This document shows, piece by piece, positions 3,612-33,722 of a stretch of 64,000 nucleotides of DNA; the first letter of the stretch is position 1, and the number at the start of each line of letters is the position of its first letter. The stretch covers positions 64,904 to 128,903 of the forward strand of contig DAIPJH010000006.1 in the NCBI GenBank assembly GCA_036770365.1. The letters are read 5' to 3'. Position numbers and translations under genes: made by a program. Source of the DNA: Rickettsiales bacterium. Its GTDB lineage: Bacteria; Pseudomonadota; Alphaproteobacteria; Rickettsiales; UBA998. The notes under the pieces were generated by a model. That model did not search any database. It saw only the letters and a list, made by a program, of their open reading frames with translations, and was not told the origin of the DNA.

Positions 3612-3644
3612 CGTCATAAAATTGTCATGTTTTTGCTATAGTAT
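3612..3644 (+). promoter_or_regulatory. Pho-box-like promoter
   Basis: CGTCAT-AAAAT-TGTCAT (3612-3628), 10 nt, then TAGTAT (3639-3644), upstream of ORF 3678. Confidence 0.6.
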
Positions 3645-3677
3645 GTTGCATGGAGACATCACAGTAAGGATATAACA

Positions 3678-4307
3678 ATGAGACGTGACGACGATTTGCA
3701 AAAACCTATTCTTGGTACAATTTCACAAACCATGCGGACAGACAGTGGGCATATTGCCCGTTATAGACATACTGTACGCGAGGGTGACTATGTGCCTATC
3801 GAACTAGCAAGACCTAAGGGGTATAAATCGCGCCAAAAAGAAAAGATGACCACCCATGAGGACGCCATGATTGAACATGTCGCTAACATTGGTCATGAAG
3901 CACTATCTGACTATGAACAAGGAACACAACAACTTCCTCATTATCCAAAACTGGACAAAACAACACACGATGACATTGAGGCACGACAAAACGAACATTT
4001 TCAGCGTATGGTTGATGCTGGTAATTTAAGGCATGAACTGGAATTTGGCGAACACAGAGAAAAATTAACAAACCTCTCGTGGGAAACAGGCCACCCTTTG
4101 CATGATTTGGATGCTACTCCCCAAGAACGTACCGTTCACGTGGGCAGCATTCCCCTAACACGACAAGAATACCCAATTCTGTCTCACACACCAGAAGAGT
4201 TTACTACCGCACTCCGCGATGCAAAGAAGCGTCATTTTGGTAGACATACGGGTAAGATCCTTGATGACATCACCTCCCCTCCTGAACCGTCACCGCGAGG
4301 CCGCTAA
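3678..4307 (+). CDS. Hypothetical protein, paralogue of 5470..6024
   Basis: 209-aa ORF with RBS AAGGA; shares a 54-aa C-terminal block with ORF 5470. Confidence 0.75.
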   Translation: MRRDDDLQKPILGTISQTMRTDSGHIARYRHTVREGDYVPIELARPKGYKSRQKEKMTTHEDAMIEHVANIGHEALSDYEQGTQQLPHYPKLDKTTHDDIEARQNEHFQRMVDAGNLRHELEFGEHREKLTNLSWETGHPLHDLDATPQERTVHVGSIPLTRQEYPILSHTPEEFTTALRDAKKRHFGRHTGKILDDITSPPEPSPRGR

Positions 4308-4318
4308 TATATACTCAC

Positions 4319-5176
4319 TTATGACCGTGGTGATATTGGTGGGGATGACTGTGCCTTGTTAATGACATGCGTTGCCATCAAGGGCTGTAAGCCAGCCATG
4401 AGTGTATCAAGCTCTTTATCATGTGCATCTAATATATTTTTCAATGCATCATCAGCAACATCCCTACCAAATTGTCCAGATGCCTTGGCTTGATTATGCG
4501 CATCCATTTGTACACATGCCAAGGCCGCATCAACATAAGATTCAATACGTTCGTCAGGCAACTCGCTTGCAATGAAGTGTTTTATGACACCACGTTCAGC
4601 ATCCACAATTTTTGTGATCATGGCATCATAACAAGGCTGAACGCTAGGACGCACACGGGCGGTTGCCTCAAAACAAAGCAATGTATCCTGCAGCCCAACA
4701 AGGGCGTCAATTTTGCTTCCAATATCACGAGGCAACCGCTGCTCTTGATACGTTTTTGCTGTTAGAAATCCATCTACAAGCCGCCCCACCCGTGCAAGAG
4801 CGGAAAAATCTTTTTGTGCAAATAAGGAAACAACCTCATCTGGTAAAAACGCAGCAAGCTCAGAAACGTCAACGCCATGAAGTAATTGTTGAACACCATC
4901 CTCAAAAAACGACGCGCTGCTAGGGTTTAAAATCAATGACTTCACTACATCATGATGATTTAAATAACTTTGAAAATCAAAATTATCAGCGCGATACGAA
5001 CGAATACCACTATCCCTCACATCCGCCTCACCAATAGCAAGATCAATCAATTTTGCAAACCCTTCAAGATTCCTTATCGCTTCCTTATCTTTACGATGTG
5101 CTAGCGCATGCTGATTCTTATGCAGAAAATCAAGATAATGATTGTAGTTCGCCACCATTCTTTCGGCAACACCCAT
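4319..5176 (-). CDS. Hypothetical helical protein
   Basis: 285-aa ORF with RBS AAAGGAG; no recognisable family. Confidence 0.75.
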   Translation of the reverse strand: MGVAERMVANYNHYLDFLHKNQHALAHRKDKEAIRNLEGFAKLIDLAIGEADVRDSGIRSYRADNFDFQSYLNHHDVVKSLILNPSSASFFEDGVQQLLHGVDVSELAAFLPDEVVSLFAQKDFSALARVGRLVDGFLTAKTYQEQRLPRDIGSKIDALVGLQDTLLCFEATARVRPSVQPCYDAMITKIVDAERGVIKHFIASELPDERIESYVDAALACVQMDAHNQAKASGQFGRDVADDALKNILDAHDKELDTLMAGLQPLMATHVINKAQSSPPISPRS

Positions 5177-5207
5177 CGCATGCTCCTTTTACTTTTAGAC
5201 AGTAACA

Positions 5208-5263
5208 TAGCACGTTAACTTTATAAGCTCCTATTTTTTGGAAATTATAAAGTTAACGTGCTA
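5208..5263. repeat. Perfect 19-bp inverted repeat with 18-nt spacer
   Basis: TAGCACGTTAACTTTATAA (5208-5226) / TTATAAAGTTAACGTGCTA (5245-5263). Confidence 0.9.
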
Positions 5264-5324
5264 GAAAATCATAAAGTTATGCTCGTTTGACTTCTTATAA
5301 AATACGTAGTTATTAAGTTAAACG

Positions 5325-5357
5325 ACTATAGAATAAAACGATGACAAGATGATGACA
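5325..5357 (-). promoter_or_regulatory. Pho-box-like promoter
   Basis: Minus strand TGTCAT-CATCT-TGTCAT (5357-5341), 10 nt, then TATAGT (5330-5325), facing ORF 4319..5176. Confidence 0.65.
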
Positions 5358-5388
5358 ATCATAAAAACCAACGTCTAATCAAAGCAGA

Positions 5389-5405
5389 TGTCACAAATAT
5401 TTCAT
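5389..5405 (+). promoter_or_regulatory. Weaker Pho-box-like direct repeat
   Basis: TGTCAC-AAATA-TTTCAT upstream of ORF 5470; no clean -10 at 10-nt spacing. Confidence 0.4.
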
Positions 5406-5469
5406 ACTTTTTAAAGAATAAATTTGTTAATATGTAGAGATATACAGCTTAATTATATGGGTTTATTTT

Positions 5470-6024
5470 ATGAGTGATGCAACAAAACATCCTATAGCCG
5501 ATGGTCCTTATACCCCTATTGGTGAAGCATCCTCAGTGGAGTATAGTGCTGCGCGTGACAAACAAAAAGCTATCATAGAGCATGAAGCGGCAACTGGCGT
5601 TGAATCAGTACGCAGAGCAGCACATAGCAACTATATGGATAGCAGTACAGAATTTTACGACGAAGGGCAGTATATGCTGCCTAAAGATAAGGCGGCACTA
5701 GTAGCATCAATGAATACGCAACAAGAGTTGTCAAGAGCTGCCCTTGAAGCTAGAGATGCCATCAAGGCAGGTGAACATGATGACACGCTCTCAAATCTAG
5801 GCAAAGACGGTCATCCAGTGGTTGATCTTACCGCCACACCTTCTGCTAAAGGCATCAAAGTCAAAGGAATTGAAGTCAGTCGTCTTGAGTATCCTGTTGT
5901 AGCACGTAACGCAGGCGAGTTTGGCGCAGCAGTAGCAACAGCAAAATCTGCAGTACTTGGTAAACATACAAGTGATTATGTATCACAGGCTGTTACAGCA
6001 GCCGAAGAAGGCTTAAAGCGTTAG
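5470..6024 (+). CDS. Hypothetical protein, paralogue of 3678..4307
   Basis: 184-aa ORF; shared GHP..DL.ATP..R.EYP..EF..AK..G.HT block. Confidence 0.75.
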   Translation: MSDATKHPIADGPYTPIGEASSVEYSAARDKQKAIIEHEAATGVESVRRAAHSNYMDSSTEFYDEGQYMLPKDKAALVASMNTQQELSRAALEARDAIKAGEHDDTLSNLGKDGHPVVDLTATPSAKGIKVKGIEVSRLEYPVVARNAGEFGAAVATAKSAVLGKHTSDYVSQAVTAAEEGLKR

Positions 6025-6029
6025 TAATA

Positions 6030-8261
6030 CTAAGAAAATTTATTATTTCTTGGGAAGCCAACAGGCGGTAAACGCCCCGAAGTGGCACGGTGTCCGTACC
6101 ATGGGGTAATGTCGGTTTCTGTGCGGGTTTTTGCGCCCAGACTCCAGCTTAAGCCATCTTCCTTTTTGAACAGTAAGATATCTGAAATATGACCGTCTTT
6201 ATATTTTTGCAGCATGACGCCCTGCCCACGCACCATTTCAGGAATCTCAGAAAGCGGAAAACACAGAAGTTTACGGTTTTTGCCAATGACTGCGACGGTA
6301 TCTTGACCCGCAATAATCGGGATACAAAATGCTGCTTTACCTGTGCCGACATTAAGAATCTGTTTGCCGCCTTTGGTGGAGGCAACAACTTGCTCTGCAT
6401 CGACCACAAACCCTCGCCCAGCGTCACTTACGACCAATAATTTTTGACCTTTTTCATGTGCAAGTGCGGTGATGATGTCAGCGTCATTCGGCAAATCCAT
6501 CATCAAGCGCAGCGGCTCACCAAAGCCTTTACCGCGTGCGATTCTATCACCTACAAGCGAATAAAAACGCCCGTTAGTAGCAAAAAACATCAAAGAATCT
6601 GTGGTGCGGGTTTTGAATGAAAACGCAACTTCATCACCCTCTTTCAGCTTCACATCAGAAATATCATCAAAATGTCCTTTAAGTGCGCGAATCCATCCCA
6701 TACGTGAGTAAATCACTGTAATAGGCTCTTTTTCAATAAAAGCTTCCACGTGAATTTCAGTAATCGTTGGAGCAGATTCAAACATCGTGCGGCGTTTACC
6801 AAGTGGAGTATCCACCCCAAAGCGTTTTTGGATGTCTTTAATTTCGCCACGAATCACGCCGCGAGCTTTGGTTTCATCAGTCAAAATTGCGCCCAGTTCT
6901 GCTGCTTCCGCTTCTAACTCGGCTTTTTCCTTTTGAATTTCCATCTCTTCAAGTTTACGCAAATTACGCAAGCGCATATTGAGAATAGCTTCAGCTTGCA
7001 CATCAGTTAAATCCCATTTCGTCATCATCACTTGTTTAGGATGATCTTCCTCACGAATGATACGGATGACTTCGTCAATATTAAGATACGCAACCAGCAA
7101 TCCGCCTAAAATTTCTAAACGCGCCTCAATTTTGCCCAAACGATAACGTGAACGGCGATACAGCACATCATAACGATGCGCGATGAAAGCCTCCAAGATT
7201 TCTTTCAAATCCATCACTTTCGGCATCCCAGACGCAGAAAGCACGTTCAGGTTAAAGTTAATGCGGCTTTGTAAGTCAGTGACTTTGAACAAAGATTCCA
7301 TTAACATTGCAGGATCGACCGAGCGTGATTTTGGCTCTAGCACCACACGCATGTCCTCAGCGGATTCATCACGTATATTAGCAAGCAACGGCAACTTTTT
7401 ATTTTTGAACAAATCTGCAATTTTTTCAATCAAACGCGACTTCGGCACTTGGTAAGGAATCTCAGTGATCACAATCTGATATAAACCATGTGATAACTGT
7501 TCAACCTCCCACTTCGCACGAATGCGCAGCGCACCGCGCCCTGTAGTGTAAGCATTTAAAATCGTAGCGCGTTCTTCGCAAATCGTGCCGCCCGTAGGGA
7601 AATCTGGGCCAGGCAAAACATCTAAAATCTCAGCAATGGTAGTGGTTGGTTTTTTAAGCAACAACAGCAATGCATCACACAACTCGCCAACATTATGCGG
7701 CGGCACCGAGGTTGCCATCCCAACTGCGATCCCCTCTGCGCCATTGGCAAGCAAATTCGGAAACGCCGCAGGCAGCACCACAGGCTCTTCTTCCGAGCCG
7801 TCATAGGTAGGGCGAAAATCCACCGTATCTTCGTCAATGCGCTCTAATAACGTCATTGCCACTTCGGTCAAACGTGCCTCAGTATAACGCATCGCAGCGG
7901 CATTATCACCGTCAATCGAGCCAAAATTGCCCTGACCATCCACCAGCGGGTAACGCACTGCAAAGGTCTGCGCCAAACGCACCATCGTGTCATAAACCGC
8001 AACATCGCCATGTGGGTGATATTTACCAATCACATCCCCGACCACACGGGCGCATTTTTTATAGCCCGAATCAGGATTGAGTTTCAGCAACAACATCGCA
8101 TAGAGCAAACGTCGATGCACAGGCTTCAAGCCATCACGCACATCTGGCAGTGAGCGCGAAGTAATAGTAGACATCGCGTACGCCAAATAACGCTCAGAAA
8201 TGGCATCCTTGAAGGATACAATCTGCGTGTCATCATGTTTTGTAGGTGTGGAAGCTGTCAT
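6030..8261 (-). CDS. parC: DNA topoisomerase IV subunit A
   Basis: RSLPDVRDGLKPVHRR, KYHPHGD and AAAMRYTEARL motifs; 743 aa with a short C-terminal domain typical of ParC rather than GyrA. Confidence 0.95.
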   Translation of the reverse strand: MTASTPTKHDDTQIVSFKDAISERYLAYAMSTITSRSLPDVRDGLKPVHRRLLYAMLLLKLNPDSGYKKCARVVGDVIGKYHPHGDVAVYDTMVRLAQTFAVRYPLVDGQGNFGSIDGDNAAAMRYTEARLTEVAMTLLERIDEDTVDFRPTYDGSEEEPVVLPAAFPNLLANGAEGIAVGMATSVPPHNVGELCDALLLLLKKPTTTIAEILDVLPGPDFPTGGTICEERATILNAYTTGRGALRIRAKWEVEQLSHGLYQIVITEIPYQVPKSRLIEKIADLFKNKKLPLLANIRDESAEDMRVVLEPKSRSVDPAMLMESLFKVTDLQSRINFNLNVLSASGMPKVMDLKEILEAFIAHRYDVLYRRSRYRLGKIEARLEILGGLLVAYLNIDEVIRIIREEDHPKQVMMTKWDLTDVQAEAILNMRLRNLRKLEEMEIQKEKAELEAEAAELGAILTDETKARGVIRGEIKDIQKRFGVDTPLGKRRTMFESAPTITEIHVEAFIEKEPITVIYSRMGWIRALKGHFDDISDVKLKEGDEVAFSFKTRTTDSLMFFATNGRFYSLVGDRIARGKGFGEPLRLMMDLPNDADIITALAHEKGQKLLVVSDAGRGFVVDAEQVVASTKGGKQILNVGTGKAAFCIPIIAGQDTVAVIGKNRKLLCFPLSEIPEMVRGQGVMLQKYKDGHISDILLFKKEDGLSWSLGAKTRTETDITPWYGHRATSGRLPPVGFPRNNKFS

Positions 8262-8314: not shown

Positions 8315-8347
8315 CTTCACGAAAATGTCATCTTTCTATGGCATGGT
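8315..8347 (+). promoter_or_regulatory. Degenerate Pho-box-like promoter
   Basis: CTTCAC-GAAAA-TGTCAT (8315-8331), 10 nt, then CATGGT; upstream of ORFs 8457 and 9178. Confidence 0.4.
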
Positions 8348-9177: not shown

Positions 9178-11958
9178 ATGCGCACACAAATACTTTCTGA
9201 ACTTTCACAACGAGTCGGTGAAACACAACATGTACTGAGTACACTTTTGGCTGGTGGAAAATATGACCCCGCACAACATCCCTTACTCAAAAAACAACTT
9301 GGTTTTATGCATGATGATGGCTATGTACTGGCCGAGCCAAGCGCGTACGAACAAAAAAATAATGGCAAAGACATTGTCACGCGTCAAAACCCAATGCGCC
9401 ATACGCAACGTAACAACCGCAATCGTTTACTAGCAAAACTTGATGACAAAGACATCCAGTTTGTACATATTTTGGGTTCACAGGTACGCCAACGTACCAT
9501 TTCAGGTGAATCTATTCCTGAATATGCTAAGGTCTATATCTGCCCCAAAGCAGATATGTATGCGATGCGTGAAATGACAAGCATCATCAAAGCAAAACTT
9601 GATGCCTTACAATCAGGTGATACCGAAAACCCCATCATCAAAAAACCCCTGATCATTGTCAACCAAGACGTCAACGACCCTAAAGAAACCGCAAAATATT
9701 ATGATGCACTACTCGGCAACCTCAATATCAAAGGAGATATCAGAGACGAGCTGAACATCGTTACTGTGGATACCGTAAATGCGGCGGTCAGCCATGCCGA
9801 ACACGCCTTGTATGTCTTGCGCGATCTCGACACCCCTCCTCGCCCGAAACTTGATCCTGCACTCAAACCAGGAGATACGATTTTTATCCATACTACCACG
9901 GTAGAAAAACTACGTGATTACCAAGAAATTTTTCGTGAGCGTGGCATTACTGTACGGATGCTTTCTGCATTAGAGAGAATCGCAGAAAGTCCTGCGGAAC
10001 ATAGCCATAGTTTTGAAGGTAATGCCGAAGAAAAATTACGCGCTGCACAGAAAATGATTGCAGAGATCCCTGACGAAGTATTCACAACCAAATTTGGACT
10101 AAAACGTTCTCAGGTACATGTCATGGTTGATGATTCTGGCTTTTATATGAATGAACCACGCCTGCTAGATCATATGAACCTTGAAGATATGGGGGGGATC
10201 ATCAACAAGGATGAATGGAAACGCGATAAGATTCCCTTTCCCGGAGTCGAGCTTGGGCCACTGATGAATGCCTCTAACGGTCTTAAGAATTTTATGGATC
10301 GCATCATACAAGCGTTAGATGACATTGATGCACAATATAATGTTCCAGCAGATCGCAGCATGACCGACGTTTCTTGTTTAGCGATTTCCGCCGCCCCTGA
10401 TTATGATCCCTCCGTCAAAGACATCCCACTCGCAGAGTATAGGCCTAAAGTGATGGATTTTATGATGTACGCCAACAAAGATTTAAACTTCAAAGCACGC
10501 ACCGAAAAAAATCTACGATCAAGTGGCATTGACCCACGCCTTGTGGAATCCAAAGATTATCAAATGCCCGCGTATGATAACCCCAAAAATAAGACCATGG
10601 GTGAATTTGAAGCCGAAGACCCTTCATGGCGCGTGCGCAACCACGTGCGAGCCTTGGCCTCACGCGCCTTAATGAGCGAGCTTGGATTACCTGAGCGTAG
10701 TAAACACCCAGAACTTTACAAAGATTTCGACAATCAACGCCGCCAAACAGATACTCGCACTTTCACCATTTCCTTACAGGGCGCAAAACACGATAAGCTT
10801 GCTCATGCACTGATACAACAAGGTGTAGCGAGTCCACAACGTGATGAAGCGCATCCCTTACAAACTCTTTCAGAGATGGAAGACGTCATTAAAACAGCAG
10901 ATGGGTTTGTTTTATTACCACATAATGACAACAACGACCTTGCTGAGAAATGCGAAAAGGCTTTTCGCTTTTGGTCACTGCTTGTAGCTCGTCAAACTGA
11001 TCCTCGTGATAACGACAAACCTATTGTCATCTATAACCCTCATCATGAGTGGGATAAACATCTTGAAGAATACAAAGAACTCCACGCATTAGGCGCGGTG
11101 AAAGAGAAACCTGAATTAATGTTCAAAGTCATCAATGGCAAAGGTGAACATGGCATTAAGGAAATAACAACTTACCTCAAACAGCAACGTGAACAGCGCG
11201 ACCCTCCCATTAACTACGCAAATCACGGCGAAGATAACATCACCCCCAAAAACGACGTGAATCGTTTCAATGTGGCGATTTTTTGTTCTGCCAATTCCGA
11301 AAAAGAATCCTATCAAGCCGATGTTTATAACCTCTCTTATAATCTTTGTAAGGATGGGTTTGGCGTTGTGTATGGCGGTGGCAGTCGCTATATGATCGGT
11401 AAGATTGCAGATGGCGCGCAAGCCGCACAAAATGACGGTTTTGATGCATCCATCACAGGTTCTAGTATGGATCACCTTGTAATTCGTGAAGGTGTTCGTC
11501 CTAATATATTAAAAGAACAAGATTCGTATCACAGTGCGAAACATATCTATCAACGTATGGAATACATGATAGCATCCTCCGATGCGTTTGTGATTGCTCC
11601 GGGGGGCATCGGCACGTTACAAGAACTCTATGCACTCATGTTACTTCAAGCACAACATGCCAAAAATATGACTGGCAAAGAAATAGTGATCGTCAACAAA
11701 CAAGATGAGCATGGGCATGGTTTCTATGACCCGATCCTTGCGAATATCTCTCTTGAAGAACGTAAACAACTTGGCATCACTGTGGTTTCGACCGTGGAAG
11801 AAGCTAAAAACAAGGTAGATGAATTCCGCATACGCAGCGACAAGAATAAAAGCATCGAACATGCCACATCGCTACCGCCAGAAAATTCAAATTTTGTAGA
11901 CAGATTCACGCAGGAAAAGCTCGAAAAAGCACAAAAAACAGCTACAAGAGGCACATAA
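9178..11958 (+). CDS. Multidomain protein: HAM1/ITPase-like domain plus LOG/SLOG-like domains
   Basis: SFEGNAEEKLRAA, VDDSGF and FPGV (HAM1-like); VYGGG and YQRM..DAFVIAPGGIGTLQE (LOG family); 926 aa. Confidence 0.75.
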   Translation: MRTQILSELSQRVGETQHVLSTLLAGGKYDPAQHPLLKKQLGFMHDDGYVLAEPSAYEQKNNGKDIVTRQNPMRHTQRNNRNRLLAKLDDKDIQFVHILGSQVRQRTISGESIPEYAKVYICPKADMYAMREMTSIIKAKLDALQSGDTENPIIKKPLIIVNQDVNDPKETAKYYDALLGNLNIKGDIRDELNIVTVDTVNAAVSHAEHALYVLRDLDTPPRPKLDPALKPGDTIFIHTTTVEKLRDYQEIFRERGITVRMLSALERIAESPAEHSHSFEGNAEEKLRAAQKMIAEIPDEVFTTKFGLKRSQVHVMVDDSGFYMNEPRLLDHMNLEDMGGIINKDEWKRDKIPFPGVELGPLMNASNGLKNFMDRIIQALDDIDAQYNVPADRSMTDVSCLAISAAPDYDPSVKDIPLAEYRPKVMDFMMYANKDLNFKARTEKNLRSSGIDPRLVESKDYQMPAYDNPKNKTMGEFEAEDPSWRVRNHVRALASRALMSELGLPERSKHPELYKDFDNQRRQTDTRTFTISLQGAKHDKLAHALIQQGVASPQRDEAHPLQTLSEMEDVIKTADGFVLLPHNDNNDLAEKCEKAFRFWSLLVARQTDPRDNDKPIVIYNPHHEWDKHLEEYKELHALGAVKEKPELMFKVINGKGEHGIKEITTYLKQQREQRDPPINYANHGEDNITPKNDVNRFNVAIFCSANSEKESYQADVYNLSYNLCKDGFGVVYGGGSRYMIGKIADGAQAAQNDGFDASITGSSMDHLVIREGVRPNILKEQDSYHSAKHIYQRMEYMIASSDAFVIAPGGIGTLQELYALMLLQAQHAKNMTGKEIVIVNKQDEHGHGFYDPILANISLEERKQLGITVVSTVEEAKNKVDEFRIRSDKNKSIEHATSLPPENSNFVDRFTQEKLEKAQKTATRGT

Positions 11959-16781: not shown

Positions 16782-17864
16782 CTAGCCAATAATATTAGCA
16801 TCAGTTAGACTGTGAACATTCTTCAAGAAAATATCTAACAACATCTGACCTTCTGTATCAGACTGACTAACATGCAACCCTTTGCTAGAGTCCACCATTA
16901 CAAATCCTGCTGATCCGCCTGCATAAGCAGAAAAATCGAGATGATCCACAAGCGTATTAAAGTCATTAATGATAGCATACGCTGCGCCATACAATGCATT
17001 TTGCACAGCAAAACTATCCGCACCATCTCCACCCGCAAGCGTGGTTGTACCTACAGTAAAATATAAAGTATCATCACCTGCACCGCCGTTCAGTGATGCT
17101 ACGCCAACGTCTTGTAAAAGTGTATCACTACCGTCACCACCGCGTAGCGTATTTGTACCACCCGCCGCCGTTAAGCTATCATTACCAAGACCGCCATCAA
17201 GGGTTGCAACACCTATGCCAGAAGTGATATTGTCATCACCCGCATCACCAAAAAAAGCATATGTACCATCTTGTCCTGAGATCGCGTCGTTATCTTCCCC
17301 GCCGCGCACGGAAGCATATATACCCGCCGCGATGGAAATAACATCTAAACCTGCCCCACCATTGATGGTATTACCCGCTTCAAATACCTCCACAGTATCA
17401 TTACCAGCTTCGCCAAAGGTTGTGCCGTTATAAGTCCCTACGTAGAAGTAATCATCTCCATCACCACCACGCACCTTGACTTCAGAGCCATAAACAAAGA
17501 ATTCATCATTTCCAGCGTCGCCATAATAAACACCGAATTCACCGCTAATATTAAAGAAATCATTCCCCGCATTGCCGTGGAACAAATTATTGTTACCTGT
17601 AACGTCAAACACATCGTCACCGTCATCACTGTAAACAGTGTCATTATTAGAAAAAGAAAAAATACGGTCATCACCTGCTTCACCGCGAACGTAGGTTGCA
17701 TCACCAAATAACCAAATAAAATCTGAACCTTCACCTGCATAAACAGAATCAGCACCATAAGAAGCATTAATGGTATCATTGCCTGCATAACCATAGATTT
17801 TTTCAATATCTAGGGTATCGTCAATTATATCTGAATTGGTCGTACCACGAATAATGCTTACCAT
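16782..17864 (-). CDS. RTX-type calcium-binding repeat protein
   Basis: Many G-x-x-G-x-D nonapeptides; C-terminal IINDFNT..DHLDF..LLDIFLKNVHSLTDANII type I secretion-like tail; RBS GGAG before ATG 17864. Confidence 0.85.
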   Translation of the reverse strand: MVSIIRGTTNSDIIDDTLDIEKIYGYAGNDTINASYGADSVYAGEGSDFIWLFGDATYVRGEAGDDRIFSFSNNDTVYSDDGDDVFDVTGNNNLFHGNAGNDFFNISGEFGVYYGDAGNDEFFVYGSEVKVRGGDGDDYFYVGTYNGTTFGEAGNDTVEVFEAGNTINGGAGLDVISIAAGIYASVRGGEDNDAISGQDGTYAFFGDAGDDNITSGIGVATLDGGLGNDSLTAAGGTNTLRGGDGSDTLLQDVGVASLNGGAGDDTLYFTVGTTTLAGGDGADSFAVQNALYGAAYAIINDFNTLVDHLDFSAYAGGSAGFVMVDSSKGLHVSQSDTEGQMLLDIFLKNVHSLTDANIIG

Positions 17865-17888
17865 AATGACTCCAAAAAACATTAAAGG

Positions 17889-21615: not shown

Positions 21616-21918
21616 TTCACTATAAAACCCTTAAAATCATCTAGGGTCAAGGGATAACAAATATGAAGATTTGATGACAATGTGGCTCTTTCTATTGTGC
21701 CACGCAACACGACAATGCTATATTAGCCGTTCTCTCTTTGAATCCTGTAATCATGCATGTTCGCATTCATGGTCGCATTCTTGAGGGATTAGCTCTTTTG
21801 GCTTTTCGCGCCTGTGAAACATCAAAAGGGAGTGTCCTTTTTGGTGCGAAGCAGGGTTCATACACAGCGGGTTGCAGAGAAATCTGACGAAGCTGTTTCG
21901 TTTTTTCAAGGAAACACC

Positions 21919-22814: not shown

Positions 22815-24260
22815 GTGCTAATGCAGAGAGAATCTTATACACCACCTTTTGATATTGCCCCGCTGATGCTGCGCGCACGCGACGAAAGCCTGCGTTCGCA
22901 TTTTTCTGCCTTTATTGGCAAATGTTTTGCGGCGGTTGACCCTAGCACACCGTATTTGCATAATTGGCATATCGACGCGGTGGCGGAACATTTAGAAGCA
23001 ACCCGCCGCAGCGACATCACCCGCCTGATTATCAATATGCCACCACGTGCGCTAAAATCTGTGTGTGTCAGTGTCGCATGGCCAGCATGGCTGCTTGGAC
23101 ATCACCCGAATATGCGCATTATGGCGGCGAGTTATTCGCAATCGCTTAGTTTACGTCACGCGCTGGATACACGCCTGATTGTCAGCACACCATGGTTTGA
23201 ACGGATGTTTCCACGCTTCAATATTACGCATGGACAAAATGAAAAGCATAAATTCGTGACCACAGAACGCGGTTTTCGGTTTGCCACGTCAGTAGGCGGT
23301 ACGGCAACGGGTGAAGGAGGTGACGTACTGATTATCGACGACCCACTCAACCCCATCCAAGCTGCATCACGTATCGAACGCGAGTTTGCAAGTAGTTGGT
23401 TTGACCAGACCTTTGCCACACGCTTAAATGACAAGGCTCATGGGCGAATTGTCGTCGTTATGCAGCGTTTACATAAAGAAGATTTGACAGGACATTTGCT
23501 CGAAAAAGGTGGCTGGGAACATTTATGTTTACCTGCAATTGCTGAAACGCGCACGATTATTCCACTCTCTGGGCGTGAGTTTATACGCGAAATTGGCGAT
23601 ATTTTGCATCCTTCCCGCGAAGGCGAACTCTTACTTGCACGTGCCAAACGTGAACTCGGCAGTTTTGGTTTTGCCGCACAATATCAGCAAGCCCCCATCC
23701 TTAGCGACGGTGGGATGATTGAAGCCACATGGCTGCAAACCTACCCATCCACGCCGCCGCTGGACGCCTTTTCACGCATCACCCAAAGCTGGGATACCGC
23801 CATCAAAGCCGCTACGCATCATGATGCGAGCGTGTGCCTCACCTTTGGAGAGATGGATGGGCGGCATTATCTGCTGGACGCGCTGGCGATTCGCGCAGAA
23901 TATCCGCAGCTCAAGCGCACCATCACCGAACTTGCTTCGCGCTATCGTCCTAACGCCGTATTGATTGAGGATAAAGCAAGCGGACAATCACTCCTTCAAG
24001 ACCTTCGTCGTGAGTCTAACCTCAACCTTATCCCGCGTATGCCAAGGGGTGATAAGATTACCCGCCTCGCCGCCATCAGCCCGATGATAGAATCTGGTAA
24101 GCTCCTGCTGCCGCGCCACAGCACATGGCTAACAGATTTCCTCCAAGAACTCCTGAACTTCCCACACGCACCCCATGATGATTATGTCGATGCACTCACG
24201 CATTATTTAGGATGGGTACGTGATCAACAAGGAACGTCACAGAGGATTCGTCGGCTATAA
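22815..24260 (+). CDS. Phage/GTA terminase large subunit
   Basis: LIINMPPRALKS (Walker A region), LIIDDP (Walker B), VVVMQRLH, SWDTA and HDDYVDA nuclease motifs. Confidence 0.9.
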   Translation: MLMQRESYTPPFDIAPLMLRARDESLRSHFSAFIGKCFAAVDPSTPYLHNWHIDAVAEHLEATRRSDITRLIINMPPRALKSVCVSVAWPAWLLGHHPNMRIMAASYSQSLSLRHALDTRLIVSTPWFERMFPRFNITHGQNEKHKFVTTERGFRFATSVGGTATGEGGDVLIIDDPLNPIQAASRIEREFASSWFDQTFATRLNDKAHGRIVVVMQRLHKEDLTGHLLEKGGWEHLCLPAIAETRTIIPLSGREFIREIGDILHPSREGELLLARAKRELGSFGFAAQYQQAPILSDGGMIEATWLQTYPSTPPLDAFSRITQSWDTAIKAATHHDASVCLTFGEMDGRHYLLDALAIRAEYPQLKRTITELASRYRPNAVLIEDKASGQSLLQDLRRESNLNLIPRMPRGDKITRLAAISPMIESGKLLLPRHSTWLTDFLQELLNFPHAPHDDYVDALTHYLGWVRDQQGTSQRIRRL

Positions 24261-24262
24261 CA

Positions 24263-26188
24263 TTATTTACGTAATATATTATCTTTAACAGGTGGTATGT
24301 GATCAATATCTGAGACCGTATTATTCGGCGATTCTTCCACCAGCGCATCCGTAAGTTCCGCGTTCGCAATACTGCGTGGATTATCTTGATGCTCAACTTT
24401 TTTTGCTAAGGATACCTTCGTATACAGCTCCATCCAACGCTGCGGGTCACACTTCACCGCTTGCATCATCGTCAAGAAATTATCAAAGGAAGGCTTCATC
24501 CCTTCCCATGTTTTTATCTGAAAACCAAAATTTTTATTATGTTTAGACGTAGATGGCTTAGGTTTCACTCCTGCTTCAACCATAACATCCATCATCTCAG
24601 ATGCCGCGGCAACCTTACTCACCACTTTTTCAAGTTCTGACTTAGTAAGATGACCAAAACGAAAATCGTTTGCCGTCTTGCGCAATGCTCCTGCGGCTTG
24701 AGACATCACGTTGCGCGCCGCGTTCACATCAACACATGATGCGTCAAACTCATAGGTTTGTGGTGCGTCGGTAAACTGCTGCGCCGACCCGAAATAATCC
24801 GCCATCTGCCCTAACGCACTGCGCACTTCTTGCACCGCTTTCCTTTTTGATTCCGAGAAAAATATCTTCTCAATACGTTCTTTTGTTGCAGGGTCATCCA
24901 GAAAGACACTTGGTAAGCGTGAATGCACTAAGGTAGAAGACTTGATTGTGCCATGCTGACCTGCGCCGTTAAGCCATGCCGCATCAAAAACATCTGGATA
25001 CCGCTGCCATGACGCCGCGTCTGCCTTAATATCTTGCCAAAACTGTGCGGTTTTATACTGATATTCCCTCTTATAGAGATTAAGATACGATTTGGAGGCT
25101 GCCTCCACATCCTCAAATAACGGTTTGAAACGTGCATCTTCGCGCACTGGCGGTAGAAAAATATCTAAGATGGAGGCCACTTCCTCCATCGCCTTACCTG
25201 CCGCTTCTAATTGTCCAAGATTATTGCGTCCACGCGCATGAGGTAACATTAAATAGTGAGCATCACGTGGAATCTCATGAAGATGACGACTCGCAGAGTG
25301 TCCCATCTCAACCCCAACCGCCATCGCCTCTAAAAGATCAGGACGATGTTGCAATGAATCCCGCGCAGCTTGCACATACGCATTAAATTGTGGCATCAGA
25401 TCAAGATGATGATTATCTTGCAGTTCATAAAGTAAGTTGATCACATGTGTTTCAGCAGTAACATCATCATCCACACCATCACGATTTAACGTTTCAAACT
25501 CAATTGTTCCTGCACCATATTTCTTAAAACCCTGCGCCCCTACTTTGCCCCACAACATCTTAATGGCGCATTTGGGAATAAGTTCCCTACCTTCTTTATC
25601 TACAATCTTAAAAAGCTTATTTCCTGATCTATCCATCGCCCAAGCATTGGGTTCTCTATCTAAATTCGTAATTTCAGTACCACCAGCGAGAAGGTGTTTG
25701 CCGCCATAAGCGTCAACACATTCCACATCTTTACTGATAACAATACCACCAAACTTCAAAAGTTTATTGGTAAACGCCTCGCGCACACGCGGCACAAACC
25801 AAAAATCAACATCTTGCAAAGGGATATTGACCTGTTTGCCATCTAAAGTCGTTTGTAAGGTAAATCCTGCTTCACCCAATAAAGTAGGTGCTTTTAATGA
25901 CATTTCCAGCTCAGGTTTATGTACAAAATAAAATGCACCAAATAACCCTTCTTTTTTACGCATTGCAGCTGCTTTTGATTTCTCAGGTCCAAAAATAATA
26001 TAATCCACCAACGACTCTGACAGATCATTATAAGGTCCAGTGCCAGCAAGATTTTCTGCATGATCACGTTTTTTTGAAAGAACATTATCACGCGCAGAAG
26101 CAATCGCCTTCATCCCCTCAGCATAACGTGCAATTGCCTCACCATAATGACGTATTTCCAGTGGATCTTTGTAGGTCTTAACTGCCAT
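24263..26188 (-). CDS. Hypothetical protein, tandem paralogue of 26188..28047
   Basis: 641 aa; shares GLFGAFY..H.PELEMSL.AP.L.GEAG and MMQAV.CDP.RWM.LYTKV with its neighbour. Confidence 0.8.
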   Translation of the reverse strand: MAVKTYKDPLEIRHYGEAIARYAEGMKAIASARDNVLSKKRDHAENLAGTGPYNDLSESLVDYIIFGPEKSKAAAMRKKEGLFGAFYFVHKPELEMSLKAPTLLGEAGFTLQTTLDGKQVNIPLQDVDFWFVPRVREAFTNKLLKFGGIVISKDVECVDAYGGKHLLAGGTEITNLDREPNAWAMDRSGNKLFKIVDKEGRELIPKCAIKMLWGKVGAQGFKKYGAGTIEFETLNRDGVDDDVTAETHVINLLYELQDNHHLDLMPQFNAYVQAARDSLQHRPDLLEAMAVGVEMGHSASRHLHEIPRDAHYLMLPHARGRNNLGQLEAAGKAMEEVASILDIFLPPVREDARFKPLFEDVEAASKSYLNLYKREYQYKTAQFWQDIKADAASWQRYPDVFDAAWLNGAGQHGTIKSSTLVHSRLPSVFLDDPATKERIEKIFFSESKRKAVQEVRSALGQMADYFGSAQQFTDAPQTYEFDASCVDVNAARNVMSQAAGALRKTANDFRFGHLTKSELEKVVSKVAAASEMMDVMVEAGVKPKPSTSKHNKNFGFQIKTWEGMKPSFDNFLTMMQAVKCDPQRWMELYTKVSLAKKVEHQDNPRSIANAELTDALVEESPNNTVSDIDHIPPVKDNILRK

Positions 26189-28047
26189 TACCGTCCTCGT
26201 TCTTCATTAAGCGTAGCCGCCGGACAGCGCGCTAGTATTTCTGTGACCCTCGTATCAGGTTGTGACGATACGAGGGTATCCTGCATTTCTTTTGCCTTAG
26301 CAACCTTGGTATATAACTTCATCCACCGCTCTGGATCACACTCCACTGCTTGCATCATACCAATAAAATCATGCATAGTGGCTCGTTGCGCGTTCCAAGC
26401 ATCCATAGTCGCAGACACGTTATCACTACACATATGCTGCGCAACATAATCCATTGCCTCACATGCATCCGCACAACGCGCAACATGAAACGCTAACAGA
26501 GCTTTAGTCACTCTATCTTTACGCACACTATCTTCAAGCTGACGTAATGCGACCACCCCTTCATTAATAGTTGTCACCAGTTCGTCCCTTGTGGGTGCAT
26601 CAACAGTTGTAGCTGCCGTCATATCACTTTTTTGCAAATGCAACCCAATTGATTCCATCGGAATACTTGCATTTTCAAAGGCTGTAAGAATCTTTTGCTT
26701 CGCTGTACGACATAATGATGGCGCACCATGTTCCTGCACTATTTCTTGTATATTCACATTTTCAAGAAATCTTAGCGGTATTCCATGATAAAAATGTGAA
26801 TCCTGTGTGATCTTTGCAAAAGAAATGATCTGATTTCCCTCACCTCGCAACCACGCTTTGTCAAACGGTTGACTGCATTGATCAATAAAATGCAGGGGAG
26901 TTTTTTTAATATCAGCAAGCAATGTCTGCTCGGTATAATCATTGATGTGCGTAGTAAAAGCATCTGCCACGTTTTGAACGGCTTGTAATAAAGGTGCATA
27001 TGTTGGATTATGGCTCACATCAGGCAAAGACAATCCAAGTGCATCCGCTGTGTCGTTTATTTTTGCCGCTGCCGTGGAAATCGCTGCCAAGCCAATATAA
27101 TCATTGTGGGTATCATCCCCAGCAAATTGATAAAAATAAAAATTATTGGGGAGATTATCCATCACCGCCCGCACCTTCTGACTCATCGCAATAGCTGCCG
27201 ACATTGCTTCTAACATCTGAGGCTTATTTACAAGCGAGTCCCGTGCATGTGTTATCATCATATTAAACTCAGGCATTAGGTTGATGTGATGATGTTCCTT
27301 AAGCTCTAATAGCCAACTCACCATTGCACCCTCAGCATTAAAATCATCTTCAACACCGTCGGTTGCCAAAGTATTAAATCGCGGAGTGTCTTTGCCTTGA
27401 CGCTTAAGTCCTTCCTTTGCGCCAACATGCCCCCATAGCATCTTCACCGCATCAATATTGTTGATTTGCTTATCTTCTTTATCAACAATGGAAAAAAGTG
27501 TTTTTTTTCCATTCATAACCCATGAACGTCCGTTCGTAAGTACTGCACCAGCAGGCAAAATATGCGTTTTGCCGTCATCACCCTGCCACTGCGTCTCTTC
27601 CTCAAGAAAAATTTTACCTCGCACTGCACCGTCAGGTGATTGTTCATGAAAATCGATTTTAATATCTTGTAAAGGGAGATACATCGCCACCCCATCTACC
27701 TCTGCTTTAAGACGACAGCCAGCCTCACCCCATAATTTAGGGGCTTGTAACGACATCTCTAGTTCAGGACGATGCAAATAATAGAACGCACCAAATAACC
27801 CAGCTTTTGTTTGTTTGGCTGCTTCGCGCATAGCATCTTCGCCATACACTATATATTCTTCCTTCTGCGTGGCTTCGACGGTATTATAAGGTCCACGCCC
27901 GACCACTGTCTTTATCGCGTCCACATCCACCCTCAATGCAGACTGCGCAGCAGCAACTGCCTTCATTGCATCAGCATAGCGATTTAAAAGAATACCATAA
28001 TTCTTTATTTCAATAGGTTCTTCAAAATATTTTGGATCGTTAGCCAT
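26188..28047 (-). CDS. Hypothetical protein, tandem paralogue of 24263..26188
   Basis: 619 aa; stop overlaps the next start (TAATG). Confidence 0.8.
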   Translation of the reverse strand: MANDPKYFEEPIEIKNYGILLNRYADAMKAVAAAQSALRVDVDAIKTVVGRGPYNTVEATQKEEYIVYGEDAMREAAKQTKAGLFGAFYYLHRPELEMSLQAPKLWGEAGCRLKAEVDGVAMYLPLQDIKIDFHEQSPDGAVRGKIFLEEETQWQGDDGKTHILPAGAVLTNGRSWVMNGKKTLFSIVDKEDKQINNIDAVKMLWGHVGAKEGLKRQGKDTPRFNTLATDGVEDDFNAEGAMVSWLLELKEHHHINLMPEFNMMITHARDSLVNKPQMLEAMSAAIAMSQKVRAVMDNLPNNFYFYQFAGDDTHNDYIGLAAISTAAAKINDTADALGLSLPDVSHNPTYAPLLQAVQNVADAFTTHINDYTEQTLLADIKKTPLHFIDQCSQPFDKAWLRGEGNQIISFAKITQDSHFYHGIPLRFLENVNIQEIVQEHGAPSLCRTAKQKILTAFENASIPMESIGLHLQKSDMTAATTVDAPTRDELVTTINEGVVALRQLEDSVRKDRVTKALLAFHVARCADACEAMDYVAQHMCSDNVSATMDAWNAQRATMHDFIGMMQAVECDPERWMKLYTKVAKAKEMQDTLVSSQPDTRVTEILARCPAATLNEERGR

Positions 28048-28157: not shown

Positions 28158-28190
28158 ACTTTAGCATCTAAACATGACAAAATGATGACA
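28158..28190 (-). promoter_or_regulatory. Pho-box-like promoter
   Basis: Minus strand TGTCAT-CATTT-TGTCAT (28190-28174), 10 nt, then TAAAGT (28163-28158), facing the paralogue pair. Confidence 0.65.
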
Positions 28191-29224: not shown

Positions 29225-29704
29225 ATGCAGGGTCTCATCACACATTCTAAGGTCTATACACTCATGGCTGCCATTGCCATGCTAGGCTTTTCCTCTGCGG
29301 CGCAGGCACAAGATAATACCATGACCCTTGAGCAAGTTGGCAATAACAACCAAGCCACAACCACCCAAGAAGGCTCTGCCAATAGCGCAGCACTACATCA
29401 AAATGGTGACGCCAACAGCTTAATTGTCGCTCAAATTGGCAATCAAAACAGCATCAACGCTACTCAAGAAGGCAACAATAACGAAAGCAGAATCACCCAA
29501 ACAGGCAATAATAATGAGGCGACCATTCTGCAATCATCAACAGGTAATATTGTCGTCGTCGATCAAGCAGGTGATTCAGATATCGCTTCCATCACCCAAC
29601 AAGGTGACAACAATAGCATAAACCTACAACAACTTAGCTCTAATGACAGCGCATACCTCTCTCAACACGGCAGCGGCAACACCATCACCGCCATTCAAAG
29701 ATAA
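29225..29704 (+). CDS. Curlin-family amyloid subunit (short, CsgB-like)
   Basis: Sec signal peptide (..AAQA), then Q-x-G-x-x-N-x-A-x-x-x repeats. Confidence 0.85.
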   Translation: MQGLITHSKVYTLMAAIAMLGFSSAAQAQDNTMTLEQVGNNNQATTTQEGSANSAALHQNGDANSLIVAQIGNQNSINATQEGNNNESRITQTGNNNEATILQSSTGNIVVVDQAGDSDIASITQQGDNNSINLQQLSSNDSAYLSQHGSGNTITAIQR

Positions 29705-29731
29705 CTTTTCCTTTACTTCTTTGTTCCCCTT

Positions 29732-29759
29732 AAAAGGAGGCTTTATGCCTCCTTTTTTG
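29732..29759 (+). terminator. Rho-independent terminator (copy 1)
   Basis: AAAAGGAGGC-TTTAT-GCCTCCTTTTTTG. Confidence 0.85.
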
Positions 29760-29814
29760 GTTTTTATACAAGGTCAAAACGTTGAAAGATAATAAAAAAA
29801 AGACAAAGGAGAAT

Positions 29815-29830
29815 TGTTACAGTTGTGTGA
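29815..29830 (+). promoter_or_regulatory. Conserved upstream motif of curlin gene 2
   Basis: TGTTACAGTTGTGTGA, starting 126 bp before the ATG. Confidence 0.7.
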
Positions 29831-29940
29831 CATTTTAGTTAATTTTGTCGTTTTATAGTTTGAAGATAATAATAGTTATGAGATAATCACTTCAGTTAAG
29901 AAAATTAACTAAAATTAAAAAACATTAAAGGAGTTATTCC

Positions 29941-30882
29941 ATGCAGCGTTCTTTCAAACATACCATGTTCACACTTCTCGCCTCAGTCGCCATGATTGGG
30001 CTTACCAGTGCAGCACACGCGGAAGCGAATAGCCTTGCCATTGAGCAGGTTGGTAACAACAACCAAGCAGCAGTCACCCAAGAAGGCTCAAACAATAACA
30101 CCAACGTCAACCAACAAGGTGACGGCAACGCATATTCTGCGACAATTACTGGTGATGGCAACCAATCCACTGTGGCACAAGGTGGTTCAGCCAACAGCAT
30201 TACGTCCACGGTCACGGGTACTGGCAACGCTAGCAATATTACACAAAGTGGTGACAATAATACGGTCACCAGCGACGTAAGTGGTGATGGCAATAATTTG
30301 AACGTACAGCAATCAGGAGACCATAACGTTCTCTCATCAACACAAACAGGCACTGGTAACGATATCTTCACGGTTCAAGCAGGATCAGGAAGTGCTATCT
30401 CTGCAAACCAATCAGGCAACGGCAACCACATCACCGCCACCCAAGCGAATGGTGAAGGTAATAATCTCAATGCCCTACAAACAGGTGACAACAACACCCT
30501 TACATCAGGACAGTTTGGGAATGCCAACGATATCTTTACAGTTCAAGCAGGGACAGGAAATAACATTTCTTCCAATCAAACGGGTGACAATAACCATGTA
30601 ACTGCTGCACAAAATGGCAATGGAAACTATGCCGAGTTCAAGCAAGAAGGCAGTAACAACGAAGCAAGCATTACTCAAACCGACGACAATAATAATGGAT
30701 TAATCCTCCAAACTGGCAATAGCAATATTGGCAAAATCGATCAAAGTGGTGGCTTTAATCGAGCGACGATCGCTCAACAAGGCGACAGTAACAATGCGAC
30801 CATCCAACAAACCACAGCAAACAATGTTGCAAGCATTTCACAAAATGGTAGCGGCAACGTAGCAACCGCTGTACAACATTAA
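29941..30882 (+). CDS. Curlin-family amyloid subunit (long, CsgA-like)
   Basis: Signal peptide (..AAHA), then many QxGxxN repeats; 313 aa. Confidence 0.87.
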   Translation: MQRSFKHTMFTLLASVAMIGLTSAAHAEANSLAIEQVGNNNQAAVTQEGSNNNTNVNQQGDGNAYSATITGDGNQSTVAQGGSANSITSTVTGTGNASNITQSGDNNTVTSDVSGDGNNLNVQQSGDHNVLSSTQTGTGNDIFTVQAGSGSAISANQSGNGNHITATQANGEGNNLNALQTGDNNTLTSGQFGNANDIFTVQAGTGNNISSNQTGDNNHVTAAQNGNGNYAEFKQEGSNNEASITQTDDNNNGLILQTGNSNIGKIDQSGGFNRATIAQQGDSNNATIQQTTANNVASISQNGSGNVATAVQH

Positions 30883-31885: not shown

Positions 31886-32046
31886 GAAATATCACTCCTT
31901 TTGTGTGACAAGTTAAGCAACAATCAAAACCTTACAGCCAGATTACAGGAAGAGGAAATCTGATAAATTGCTAAAGTCATTGCCAAGCATGGCGCGGAGC
32001 TGTAACGTTATAGCGATATCTATCTGAACCATTGACCCTGCACACT

Positions 32047-32403
32047 ATGACCTCACACACACCCTCATCTCCCCTCACTGAGTCAGAGTTCCGCGAGCGT
32101 GCAGATGCAACGCTGGAATATCTGTTTGAGAAGCTTGACGAAGAAGATATGGGCGGCGTTTTGGATCTAGATTTGCAAGAAGGTGTATTGTCTATTGCAA
32201 CCAACACAGGTCACGCTTTTGTGGTCAGCCGCCACGTCCCTAGCAAAGAAATATGGCTTTCTTCTCCACTCACAGGCGGGCTACATTTTGCTTACCCCTA
32301 CAAACAAGATGACTGGTGGCTGCGTGATGGCCGCACCCTCACCGTGGTACTTTCCGAAGAAATTAGTCAAACGACAGGCTGTGAATTCACGCTCGGCACA
32401 TAA
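32047..32403 (+). CDS. cyaY: Frataxin-like iron donor protein CyaY
   Basis: LDLQEGVLSI..FVVSRHVPSKEIWLSSPLTGGLHF..W..DG. Confidence 0.9.
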   Translation: MTSHTPSSPLTESEFRERADATLEYLFEKLDEEDMGGVLDLDLQEGVLSIATNTGHAFVVSRHVPSKEIWLSSPLTGGLHFAYPYKQDDWWLRDGRTLTVVLSEEISQTTGCEFTLGT

Positions 32404-33215
32404 AATGGTGCAAGTTCGTACATAGGCAAACTGGCGTCGCCATAAATAGGATCAGGCGGCGTAAGATGATGCGTTATACCATATGCAATACCTTGTAATA
32501 CCGCCGCGATCACATGTTCGATGTTGGCGTCTGCCCCTGCTACGCGATGCTCGATACGTCGCGCAGTGCTACGCGGTGACCCAGCAAGATGTTCCTTACC
32601 CTGAAGCAATCCTAACCCATCAGGGATACGTAATGCGGTGGTGCGGTTATTATAACCCCAACTAACAGTCACAGGAGCATGAAATCCTGACACTACCCGC
32701 CGCCATGATGCCTCTGATGGCATGAACACGTGAAGATAATCAGGCATCGTCACTAACAATCCCGCCAAGCTCTGCTGAAGCGGCGCACTCAGAACCCCTT
32801 CTTGTTTGATGTAAAGTAGATTACCACCATCGCCTTCGAGGTGGACATGGATATGAATTCCACTGCCATAATCTTGTGCAAATGGTTTGGCTGAGAAATC
32901 TGCCATGAAACCCATCTGTGAAGCGATATCCTGAGCAACGCCGCGGAGCGCACGTGCCTGCGCGACCAATATTTCAAGATCATTCGTTGGAAAAAGTGCA
33001 GCTTCAACCTGCCCCAAACCAGATTCTTCATTGACCGAATGAAGCAACAACCCAGCCTGCTGAATTCGCTCGAGATAGACCGCACGTGTAGCATTATCTG
33101 CAGGCATAGCATCATCAAGACGACGTAGATACCATTCCCACTCCAACGCAACACACGCCACCACGCCACAGCTTTGCTGTAACGCCAGCGACGCGTTATG
33201 CGCACTCAACAACAT
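32367..33215 (-). CDS. Glutamine synthetase-like catalytic domain only
   Basis: LEWEWY, EESGLGQVE, KPF..GSGIHIHVHL, SWGYNNRTTALRIP and RIEHRVAGADAN; no N-terminal beta-grasp domain. Confidence 0.8.
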   Translation of the reverse strand: MLLSAHNASLALQQSCGVVACVALEWEWYLRRLDDAMPADNATRAVYLERIQQAGLLLHSVNEESGLGQVEAALFPTNDLEILVAQARALRGVAQDIASQMGFMADFSAKPFAQDYGSGIHIHVHLEGDGGNLLYIKQEGVLSAPLQQSLAGLLVTMPDYLHVFMPSEASWRRVVSGFHAPVTVSWGYNNRTTALRIPDGLGLLQGKEHLAGSPRSTARRIEHRVAGADANIEHVIAAVLQGIAYGITHHLTPPDPIYGDASLPMYELAPFYVPSVNSQPVV

Positions 33216-33216
33216 A

Positions 33217-33540
33217 CTAAGCTACTTGAGACTCAATCCACTCTTTAAGCTGCCCCTTAGGGAGCGCACCAGCTTTAGTGGCGATCGGCTTACCATCCTT
33301 AAACAAGATCATGGTCGGGATCGCACGTACATTATATCTAGTTGGTGCTTCAGGATTTTGATCAATATTCATTTTTGCAATCGTCACTTTGCCTGCAAGC
33401 TCACCCGCAAGTTCATCCAAAATAGGCGAAAGCTGACGGCACGGCCCACACCACTCTGCCCAAAAATCGACCAACACTGCCCCTGATGCACCCAACACTT
33501 GCGCCTCAAAATTATCATCCGTTACATGCGTCGAAACCAT
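33217..33540 (-). CDS. trxA: Thioredoxin
   Basis: [11 protein letters not shown]; RBS GGAG before ATG 33540. Confidence 0.96.
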
Positions 33541-33689
33541 GTGTATCTCCCTTATTTTCAACGTTCAACTTCACCATAGATAGATAAGCCATCTCCACAA
33601 ATAGTCAAGCGGTAGCTGTATTTTTGTACGTCGCCGCAAACGGAAAATTAACTAATTTTAAGTATATTAAAGTATGATTTGCATCATAT

Positions 33690-33722
33690 TGTCATAAAAC
33701 TGTCATCGTGATACTTTAACAT
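33690..33722 (+). promoter_or_regulatory. Pho-box-like promoter
   Basis: TGTCAT-AAAAC-TGTCAT (33690-33706), 10 nt, then TAACAT (33717-33722). Confidence 0.7.

Follow-up and report, generated by a model that had tools for sequence, protein, structure and literature searches.

Four strong promoters of the Pho-box type were found in a 64-kb segment of a bacterial chromosome (contig DAIPJH010000006.1; guanine-cytosine (GC) content ~45%), the whole of which we refer to as the window. Each consists of a tandem direct repeat like that of PhoB sites, followed at a fixed distance by a -10 element. We consider it likely that these sites are PhoB-dependent phosphate-starvation promoters, at which phospho-PhoB would act by class-II-type activation, and it is very probable that a regulator of the OmpR/PhoB family activates them. 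The Pho-box element itself is textbook knowledge; what is new is the set of genes that it marks, foremost a family of uncharacterised proteins called C below. The strong sites are as follows (distances in nucleotides, nt).

3612..3644, + strand: Pho-box promoter 1, CGTCATAAAATTGTCAT, which is CGTCAT-AAAAT-TGTCAT, then N10 and the -10 element TAGTAT (3639-3644)
5325..5357, - strand: Pho-box promoter 2, TGTCATCATCTTGTCAT, which is TGTCAT-CATCT-TGTCAT, then N10 and the -10 element TATAGT (5330-5325)
28158..28190, - strand: Pho-box promoter 3, TGTCATCATTTTGTCAT, which is TGTCAT-CATTT-TGTCAT, then N10 and the -10 element TAAAGT (28163-28158)
33679..33722, + strand: Pho-box promoter 4, TGTCATAAAACTGTCAT at 33690, which is TGTCAT-AAAAC-TGTCAT, then N10 and the -10 element TAACAT (33717-33722)

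Promoter 1 begins 7 nt past the flgH stop codon, promoter 3 is divergent from ubiE, and promoter 4 carries a weak extra unit, TTGCAT, upstream of its box. These four sites had been proposed in an earlier reading of the same DNA (the original prediction), and all are present at the positions and on the strands given there, each with its 10-nt gap and TAnnnT. The pattern YGTCAT-N5-TGTCAT matches four times in 64 kb against an expectation of 0.06, and none of 100 shuffles reached four. All four sites are intergenic, and intergenic DNA makes up roughly 6 kb, or 9.5%, of the window. A TAnnnT sequence lies exactly 10 nt downstream in every case (p about 9e-7, given that TAnnnT occupies 3.1% of intergenic positions). 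The cores match at 11-12 of 12 positions, the spacers between them are A/T-rich (AAAAT, CATCT, CATTT and AAAAC in sites 1-4), and every site points toward a gene whose start codon lies 30-145 nt ahead. For control DNA we used 1.44 Mb around parC of other alphaproteobacteria, where five sites scored 11/12 and none 12/12; in metagenomic parC loci, another 0.66 Mb, there were two 11/12 sites.

We found no -35 hexamer at these promoters: at 16-18 nt from the four -10 elements, the best match to TTGACA was at most 3/6. The four promoters should therefore need an activator. A generic sigma-70 scan added nothing at the strong sites.

By its published definition, a Pho box contains two copies of CTGTCAT separated by an A/T-rich spacer of 4 nt; the definition has been applied to rhizobia and E. 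coli (PMC3131613, PMC4415409). PhoB sites also keep a strict spacing to the core promoter elements (PMC10294691). The window sites resemble Pho regulon promoters (E. coli pstS, phoB and phoA; Sinorhizobium and Rhizobium) in having at least two 11-bp direct-repeat units with the core (C/T)TGTCA(T/C) and an A/T-rich spacer, in placing the last unit 10 bp ahead of the -10 without a -35, and in running co-directionally with the gene. In E. coli (NC_000913), the pstS promoter reads CTGTCATAAAACTGTCAT ATTCCTTACATATAA CTGTCAC-N10-TATTTT and the phoB promoter TTTCATAAATCTGTCAT-N10-CATAAT; the pstS promoter shares the 17-mer TGTCAT-AAAAC-TGTCAT with site 4. Among PLSDB sequences, the pstS promoter of Skermanella rosea reads CGTCATCCAAATGTCAT-N10-TATGCT and that of Pararhizobium CGTCATTAAAATGTTAA-N10-TACGAT, and pstS of two Azospirillum strains is preceded by four phased units ending CGTCAC-N10-TATGGT. 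The pstS promoters of Shinella and Tistrella, compared likewise, gave a weaker match and no clear match, respectively. The original identification of the motif and its position with the PhoB box is thus borne out by the layout of E. coli pstS and phoB and of alphaproteobacterial pstS promoters, and the four window sites show every feature of a Pho box that can be read at the sequence level.

We propose that transcription from these sites is of the sigma-70 type and depends on an activator, with a tandem PhoB site in place of the -35 element; each of the two 11-bp units of this site consists of TGTCAT and an A/T-rich spacer. When phosphate is scarce, phosphorylated PhoB would occupy both units head-to-tail, contact region 4 of sigma and recruit RNA polymerase. 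Four transcription units, namely A1, B, C1-C2 and D1-D2, would be turned on in this way, and probably A2 as well. We infer that the regulator is the host's PhoB and the signal phosphate, and likewise the positions of the transcription starts. The model gives a functional handle on six unannotated proteins (A1, B, C1, C2, D1 and D2), which are probably made under phosphate limitation. The genes concerned are listed here (aa, amino acids).

3678..4307, + strand: gene A1, 209 aa, hydrophilic, no family match; AAGGA ~7 nt before the ATG
5470..6024, + strand: gene A2, 184 aa, paralog of A1
4319..5176, - strand: gene B, 285 aa, no family match
26188..28047, - strand: gene C1, 619 aa, of an uncharacterised family of about 600 aa
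24263..26188, - strand: gene C2, 641 aa, paralog of C1
33747..35305, + strand: genes D1-D2, overlapping by 4 nt, no family match
D1, first gene of this pair: 156 aa, start TTG at 33747, or ATG at 33756
D2, second gene of this pair: 363 aa, low-complexity, rich in A, P, Q and T

A1 and A2 are 31% identical (E 1e-20), as are C1 and C2 (E 1e-97); apart from these two pairs, the genes behind the four sites are mutually unrelated. C1 and C2 probably form one operon, because the C2 start overlaps the C1 stop. According to the original prediction, the genes that face the boxes cannot be annotated. This stood as far as curated families are concerned, since A1, A2, B, C1, C2, D1 and D2 had no Pfam or NCBIfam match above the curated cut-off and nothing meaningful in PHROG or PADLOC; it did not stand for C1 and C2, which have about 25 distant homologs. 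A word-indexed protein search with B returned the query alone, phmmer searches of the PDB with A1, B and D2 found nothing, and no homolog of the orphan genes lies beside parC in 160 parC loci from genomes and metagenomes. The putative orphan status of A, B and D is that given by the word-indexed search only, which is less sensitive than a profile search.

The same genes had been described as possibly encoding secreted proteins, and this suggestion found no support. There is no N-terminal signal-like hydrophobic stretch in A1, A2, B, C1, C2, D1 or D2, and no clear membrane segment in any product; the highest 19-residue hydropathy, 1.86, belongs to a moderately hydrophobic internal segment of D2. 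Nor do any secretion-system genes adjoin the A, B, C or D genes. The products of the box-marked genes are probably soluble, cytoplasmic and uncharacterised proteins, though some may conceivably leave the cell by a non-classical route.

Gene B has a leader of roughly 140 nt that contains additional elements. The unit TTATAAAGTTAAC occurs in it at 5245, 5266 and 5310, and the copy at 5310 overlaps the -10 of promoter 2. The leader also contains a hairpin, for which the RNA fold has z = -5.6:

5208..5263, - strand: strong hairpin in the gene B leader, arms 5208-5231 / 5240-5263, 24 nt, 92% complementary

These repeats and the hairpin may serve in control, either as another operator or through the leader RNA.

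The C family shows how an orphan label taken from a word-indexed search can mislead. Such a search with C1 returned the query alone, even with a 16-sequence profile, and searches of genome, metagenome and viral contigs with C1 or C-family alignments gave no confirmed locus. When a profile of C1 and C2 was run with HMMER against 1.84 billion representatives, it recovered 25 further proteins, mostly of 520-690 aa, at E down to 3e-82. Because HMMER and tblastn detect C homologs at E 1e-40 to 1e-82, a "no homolog" result from a word-indexed search alone is no evidence that a gene is an orphan.

No member of the C family has a Pfam domain. The 16-sequence alignment contains invariant residues at G50, N55, G83, G86, F88, H92, P94, G110, L126, D189, W205, K215, D234, D235, A238 and F261, and we would guess from the invariant H, D and K in the N-terminal 300 aa that the family may be enzymatic. 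An AlphaFold2 model of C1 built from this alignment reached a mean predicted local distance difference test score (pLDDT) of 85.9 and a predicted template modeling score (pTM) of 0.70; an earlier model from two sequences (pLDDT 42.6) was discarded. Foldseek comparison of the C1 model with the PDB and BFVD gave nothing below E 0.2, and the C profile matched only coiled-coil noise among PDB sequences. The C family is real and conserved and, going by the predicted model, is without a detectable structural relative in PDB or BFVD. With C1, C2 and about 25 distant relatives, it is a concrete candidate to supply a new activity during phosphate starvation.

We then looked upstream of C genes in other genomes, using the contigs of ten C-family homologs (within the range L081-L092). 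At 7 of the 10 loci, the short upstream intergenic region contains a Pho-like box scoring at least 9/12:

L081: box ATTCATGGAATTGTCAT upstream of the C homolog
L083: box CTTCACAAAACTGTAAC upstream of the C homolog
L084: box TGTCACGAAATCTTCAC upstream of the C homolog
L086: box TTTCACGAAACTGTCAT upstream of the C homolog
L088: box TTTCATACAATTGTCAT upstream of the C homolog
L091: box TTTCATCGAAATGTCAT upstream of the C homolog
L092: box CTTCATCAAAATGTCAT upstream of the C homolog

Significance was assessed by shuffling the true intergenic region of each locus with dinucleotides kept and scoring the same strand. Per-locus p values went down to 3e-4, and the Fisher-combined p was 6e-9 over the 10 loci and 1.9e-5 when syntenic groups were collapsed to 7 lineages. 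The syntenic groups are of two kinds: the order acyl-CoA synthetase, C gene, ahcY is found in L084/L085, L086 and L091, and the order ftsA, C gene, ftsZ in L088 and L092. In alignments of syntenic orthologs, the box together with a TAnAnT ~21 nt downstream is the best-conserved stretch of an otherwise diverged spacer. The genomes that carry the box before C genes span 33-64% GC. The multi-unit logic of these promoters is the same as that of E. coli and Azospirillum pstS.

Boxes also occur in these contigs before other genes without a Pfam match:

L081, 988-1004, - strand: TGTCATTATACTGTCAC-N10-TATTCT
L086, 3102-3134, + strand: CGTCATAAAACCGTCAC-N10-TAGGAT
L083, 6892, - strand: further boxed gene
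L084, 12031, - strand: further boxed gene

The genes behind them share no homology with A, B or D of the window, and the overall excess of boxes in the C-homolog loci is modest. In the C-family promoter of L091 (5452-5504), 6 nt separate the -10 element TAGATT from the annotated ATG; a leaderless mRNA is predicted here, provided that the start codon has been called correctly.

Within the window, weaker boxes were sought by scoring every position against TGTCAY-N5-TGTCAY (maximum 12), with dinucleotide shuffles of the intergenic DNA as background. Intergenic DNA contained 17 positions scoring at least 10 (1.43 expected), 7 scoring at least 11 (0.10 expected) and 3 scoring 12 (0.002 expected). 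Once the four strong sites and shifted self-hits are removed, about nine weak loci are left; weak sites are in excess as a class, and individual ones cannot be called singly. Several of them are listed below.

5389..5433, + strand: probable weaker Pho-box promoter, TGTCACAAATATTTCAT, which is TGTCAC-AAATA-TTTCAT, 11/12, with a degenerate third unit and then TAATAT (5428-5433)
8315..8331, + strand: weak box, CTTCACGAAAATGTCAT, 10/12, 125 nt ahead of the 8457/9178 (Ham1-LOG) operon
40792..40824, - strand: candidate weak box before panC, TTTCATGTATATGTCAG, 10/12, TAAACT after exactly 10 nt
21679, - strand: weak box before a cysteine desulfurase gene, 10/12
18062, - strand: weak box before an RTX gene, 10/12
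36839, - strand: weak box before a COX1-like gene, 10/12

The two weaker versions named in the original prediction, at 5389 and 8315, both exist. The former is divergent from promoter 2 and stands ahead of A2; its TAATAT lies 22 nt past the second unit, a layout shared with several C-family homolog promoters. It is a probable Pho-box promoter and the most credible of the weak sites. The box at 8315 is followed by no TAnnnT at 10 or at 21-22 nt, the spacings found elsewhere, and with a score of 10/12 it lends no support to the proposed membership of the Ham1-SLOG enzyme. The gene at 9178-11958 (+) encodes a 926-aa protein with a partial Ham1-like (XTP/dITP pyrophosphatase) region at residues 234-324 and a LOG/TIGR00730 Rossmann domain at residues 697-862, the remainder being unassigned, and the gene ahead of it encodes 212 aa without a family match.

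The claim that the box does not precede housekeeping genes holds for the strong sites and fails for the 10/12 boxes, which precede panC and the cysteine desulfurase, RTX and COX1-like genes. A regulon made only of orphans, as first envisaged, is not supported, since weaker boxes precede annotated genes and the scope is 64 kb of one genome. What survives of the earlier reading as a whole is the Pho-box-type promoter; secretion, membership of the Ham1-SLOG enzyme and the orphan-only regulon are not supported. The class V aminotransferase behind the box at 21679 was considered as the phosphonate gene PhnW and rejected, as it is a cysteine desulfurase of the NifS/IscS type. A 628-bp region without an open reading frame of at least 80 aa (38014-38641; no Rfam match) includes three 11-bp-phased half-sites, CTTCAT, TGTCAC and TGTCGT, at 38405-38432 with no recognisable -10, and a perfect, terminator-like 14-nt hairpin at 38034-38067.

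Several observations weigh against a phosphate-starvation regulon. Because the window does not include the phoB, phoR and pst genes of the host, the box cannot be shown on the host's own canonical Pho genes, and the loci fetched for comparison contain no pst or pho gene either. No known phosphate-related gene stands behind any window site; the downstream genes encode uncharacterised soluble proteins and differ in this from the transporters, phosphatases and phosphonate genes of the Pho regulon. Sites are also denser than the E. coli average, with four correctly placed sites in 64 kb compared to 65 PhoB-bound regions in 4.6 Mb of E. coli (PMC10294691), which might be a sign of a regulator with broader scope, or of a different one. 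Upstream of the C homologs, L082, L087 and L089 have no box, and most of the promoters have their -10 at 21-22 nt past the second good unit rather than at 10 nt. This is one helical turn beyond the spacing in the window, with a degenerate third unit in between, and we attribute the longer distance to that third unit. Finally, binding and induction at the sites are predictions.

Much of this would also fit a different OmpR/PhoB-family regulator of PhoB-like specificity, for instance a paralog of PhoB or a CenR-like regulator of envelope and division, that responds to a non-phosphate cue and controls a lineage-specific gene set in the manner of PmrA; we give this a small but appreciable chance. 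PmrA of Legionella pneumophila and Coxiella burnetii is an OmpR-family regulator with a tandem repeat just upstream of the -10 of scattered effector genes. Its repeat is TTAAT-based, and the effectors under its control are substrates of the type IV secretion system. The window is similar in that scattered, lineage-specific genes without known function have a tandem repeat next to their -10, but the repeat there is TGTCAT and neither a type IV secretion system nor a secretion signal was seen. The high density of sites (4 strong, and a weak excess of 17 vs 1.43), the lack of a phosphate-related gene behind any of them and the position of the C gene between ftsA and ftsZ in L088 and L092 all speak for another regulator. 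So does the existence of CenR, an OmpR-family regulator in the alphaproteobacteria Rhodobacter and Caulobacter, whose motif (TGA-N8-TGA, T[GC]AC...GTGA) is also an 11-bp-phased direct repeat, located upstream of the -35, and whose targets are linked to cell division and the envelope and are mostly envelope proteins with signal peptides (PMC9275681). A CenR-type site was nevertheless rejected: the window core is TGTCAT on the coding strand and overlaps the -35 position, whereas CenR sites read T(G/C)AC...GTGA and stand upstream of the -35 instead of replacing it. The core is exactly that of PhoB sites, moreover, and several alphaproteobacterial pstS promoters show the exact box and spacing. That the box is kept before C genes over so wide a range of GC contents suggests a widely conserved regulator. 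For these reasons we prefer PhoB-dependent promoters. A larger picture, which we offer tentatively and think rather doubtful, is that an expanded regulon of largely lineage-specific soluble proteins answers, in poorly sampled alphaproteobacteria, to the phosphate-starvation regulator or to a close paralog of it. The C family would be a conserved, unrecognised component of the response, and its position between ftsA and ftsZ would hint at a link between phosphate and cell division.

It is improbable that a repressor binds the box as its operator, or that an alternative sigma factor reads it as a -35-like element. PhoB is able to repress, depending on site location (PMC10294691), and the reverse complement of the core, ATGACA, resembles TTGACA. 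The geometry of the sites is nonetheless that of activation, with a tandem 11-bp period, co-directional with the gene, that ends 10 nt ahead of the -10 without a -35, and the gaps of 10 and 21 nt between unit and -10 do not match a sigma spacer of 16-18 nt. That the sites arose by chance, or by duplication or movement of a DNA segment, has hardly any probability left. TGTCAT by itself is somewhat commoner in the window than expected (82 vs 51), but chance predicts 0.06 tandem sites where there are four, and the -10 offset is fixed. The flanks of the strong sites share only the box and the -10, and the downstream genes are unrelated except for A1/A2 and C1/C2, so the sites did not arise by duplication of one segment; the box also recurs before distant homologs. 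On these site statistics, chance and duplication are effectively refuted.

The closest ParC is 65% identical among about 185,000 species genomes and 69% identical in JGI metagenomes, in Kiloniellales- and Rhodospirillales-like alphaproteobacteria. With matches only this close, the host is a poorly sampled alphaproteobacterium; it looks like a flagellated one with RTX and curlin-repeat genes. The window contains no tRNA genes, and Rfam gave no match on it. Its recognisable genes include the following.

120-3605: flgF (end)-flgG-flgA-flgH
6030-8261, - strand: parC
In the window: folE, maf, thiolase and reductase genes
In the window: the cysteine desulfurase gene
In the window: ubiE, trxA, panC, ispH and ftsY
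22815-24260, + strand: terminase of the gene-transfer-agent/phage type
57594-61280, - strand: portal-protease-capsid set
16782-17882 (- strand), 36886-38013 (+ strand) and 50793-56388 (+ strand): at least five RTX calcium-binding repeat proteins
29225-30882: two curlin-repeat genes

The phage- or gene-transfer-agent-like head genes are split, with a lone large terminase and, 33 kb off amid housekeeping genes, the portal, prohead protease and major capsid genes. Among the RTX proteins, one has a pectate-lyase-like beta-helix and another a PD40 beta-propeller, and the RTX genes contain 27-nt tandem repeats.

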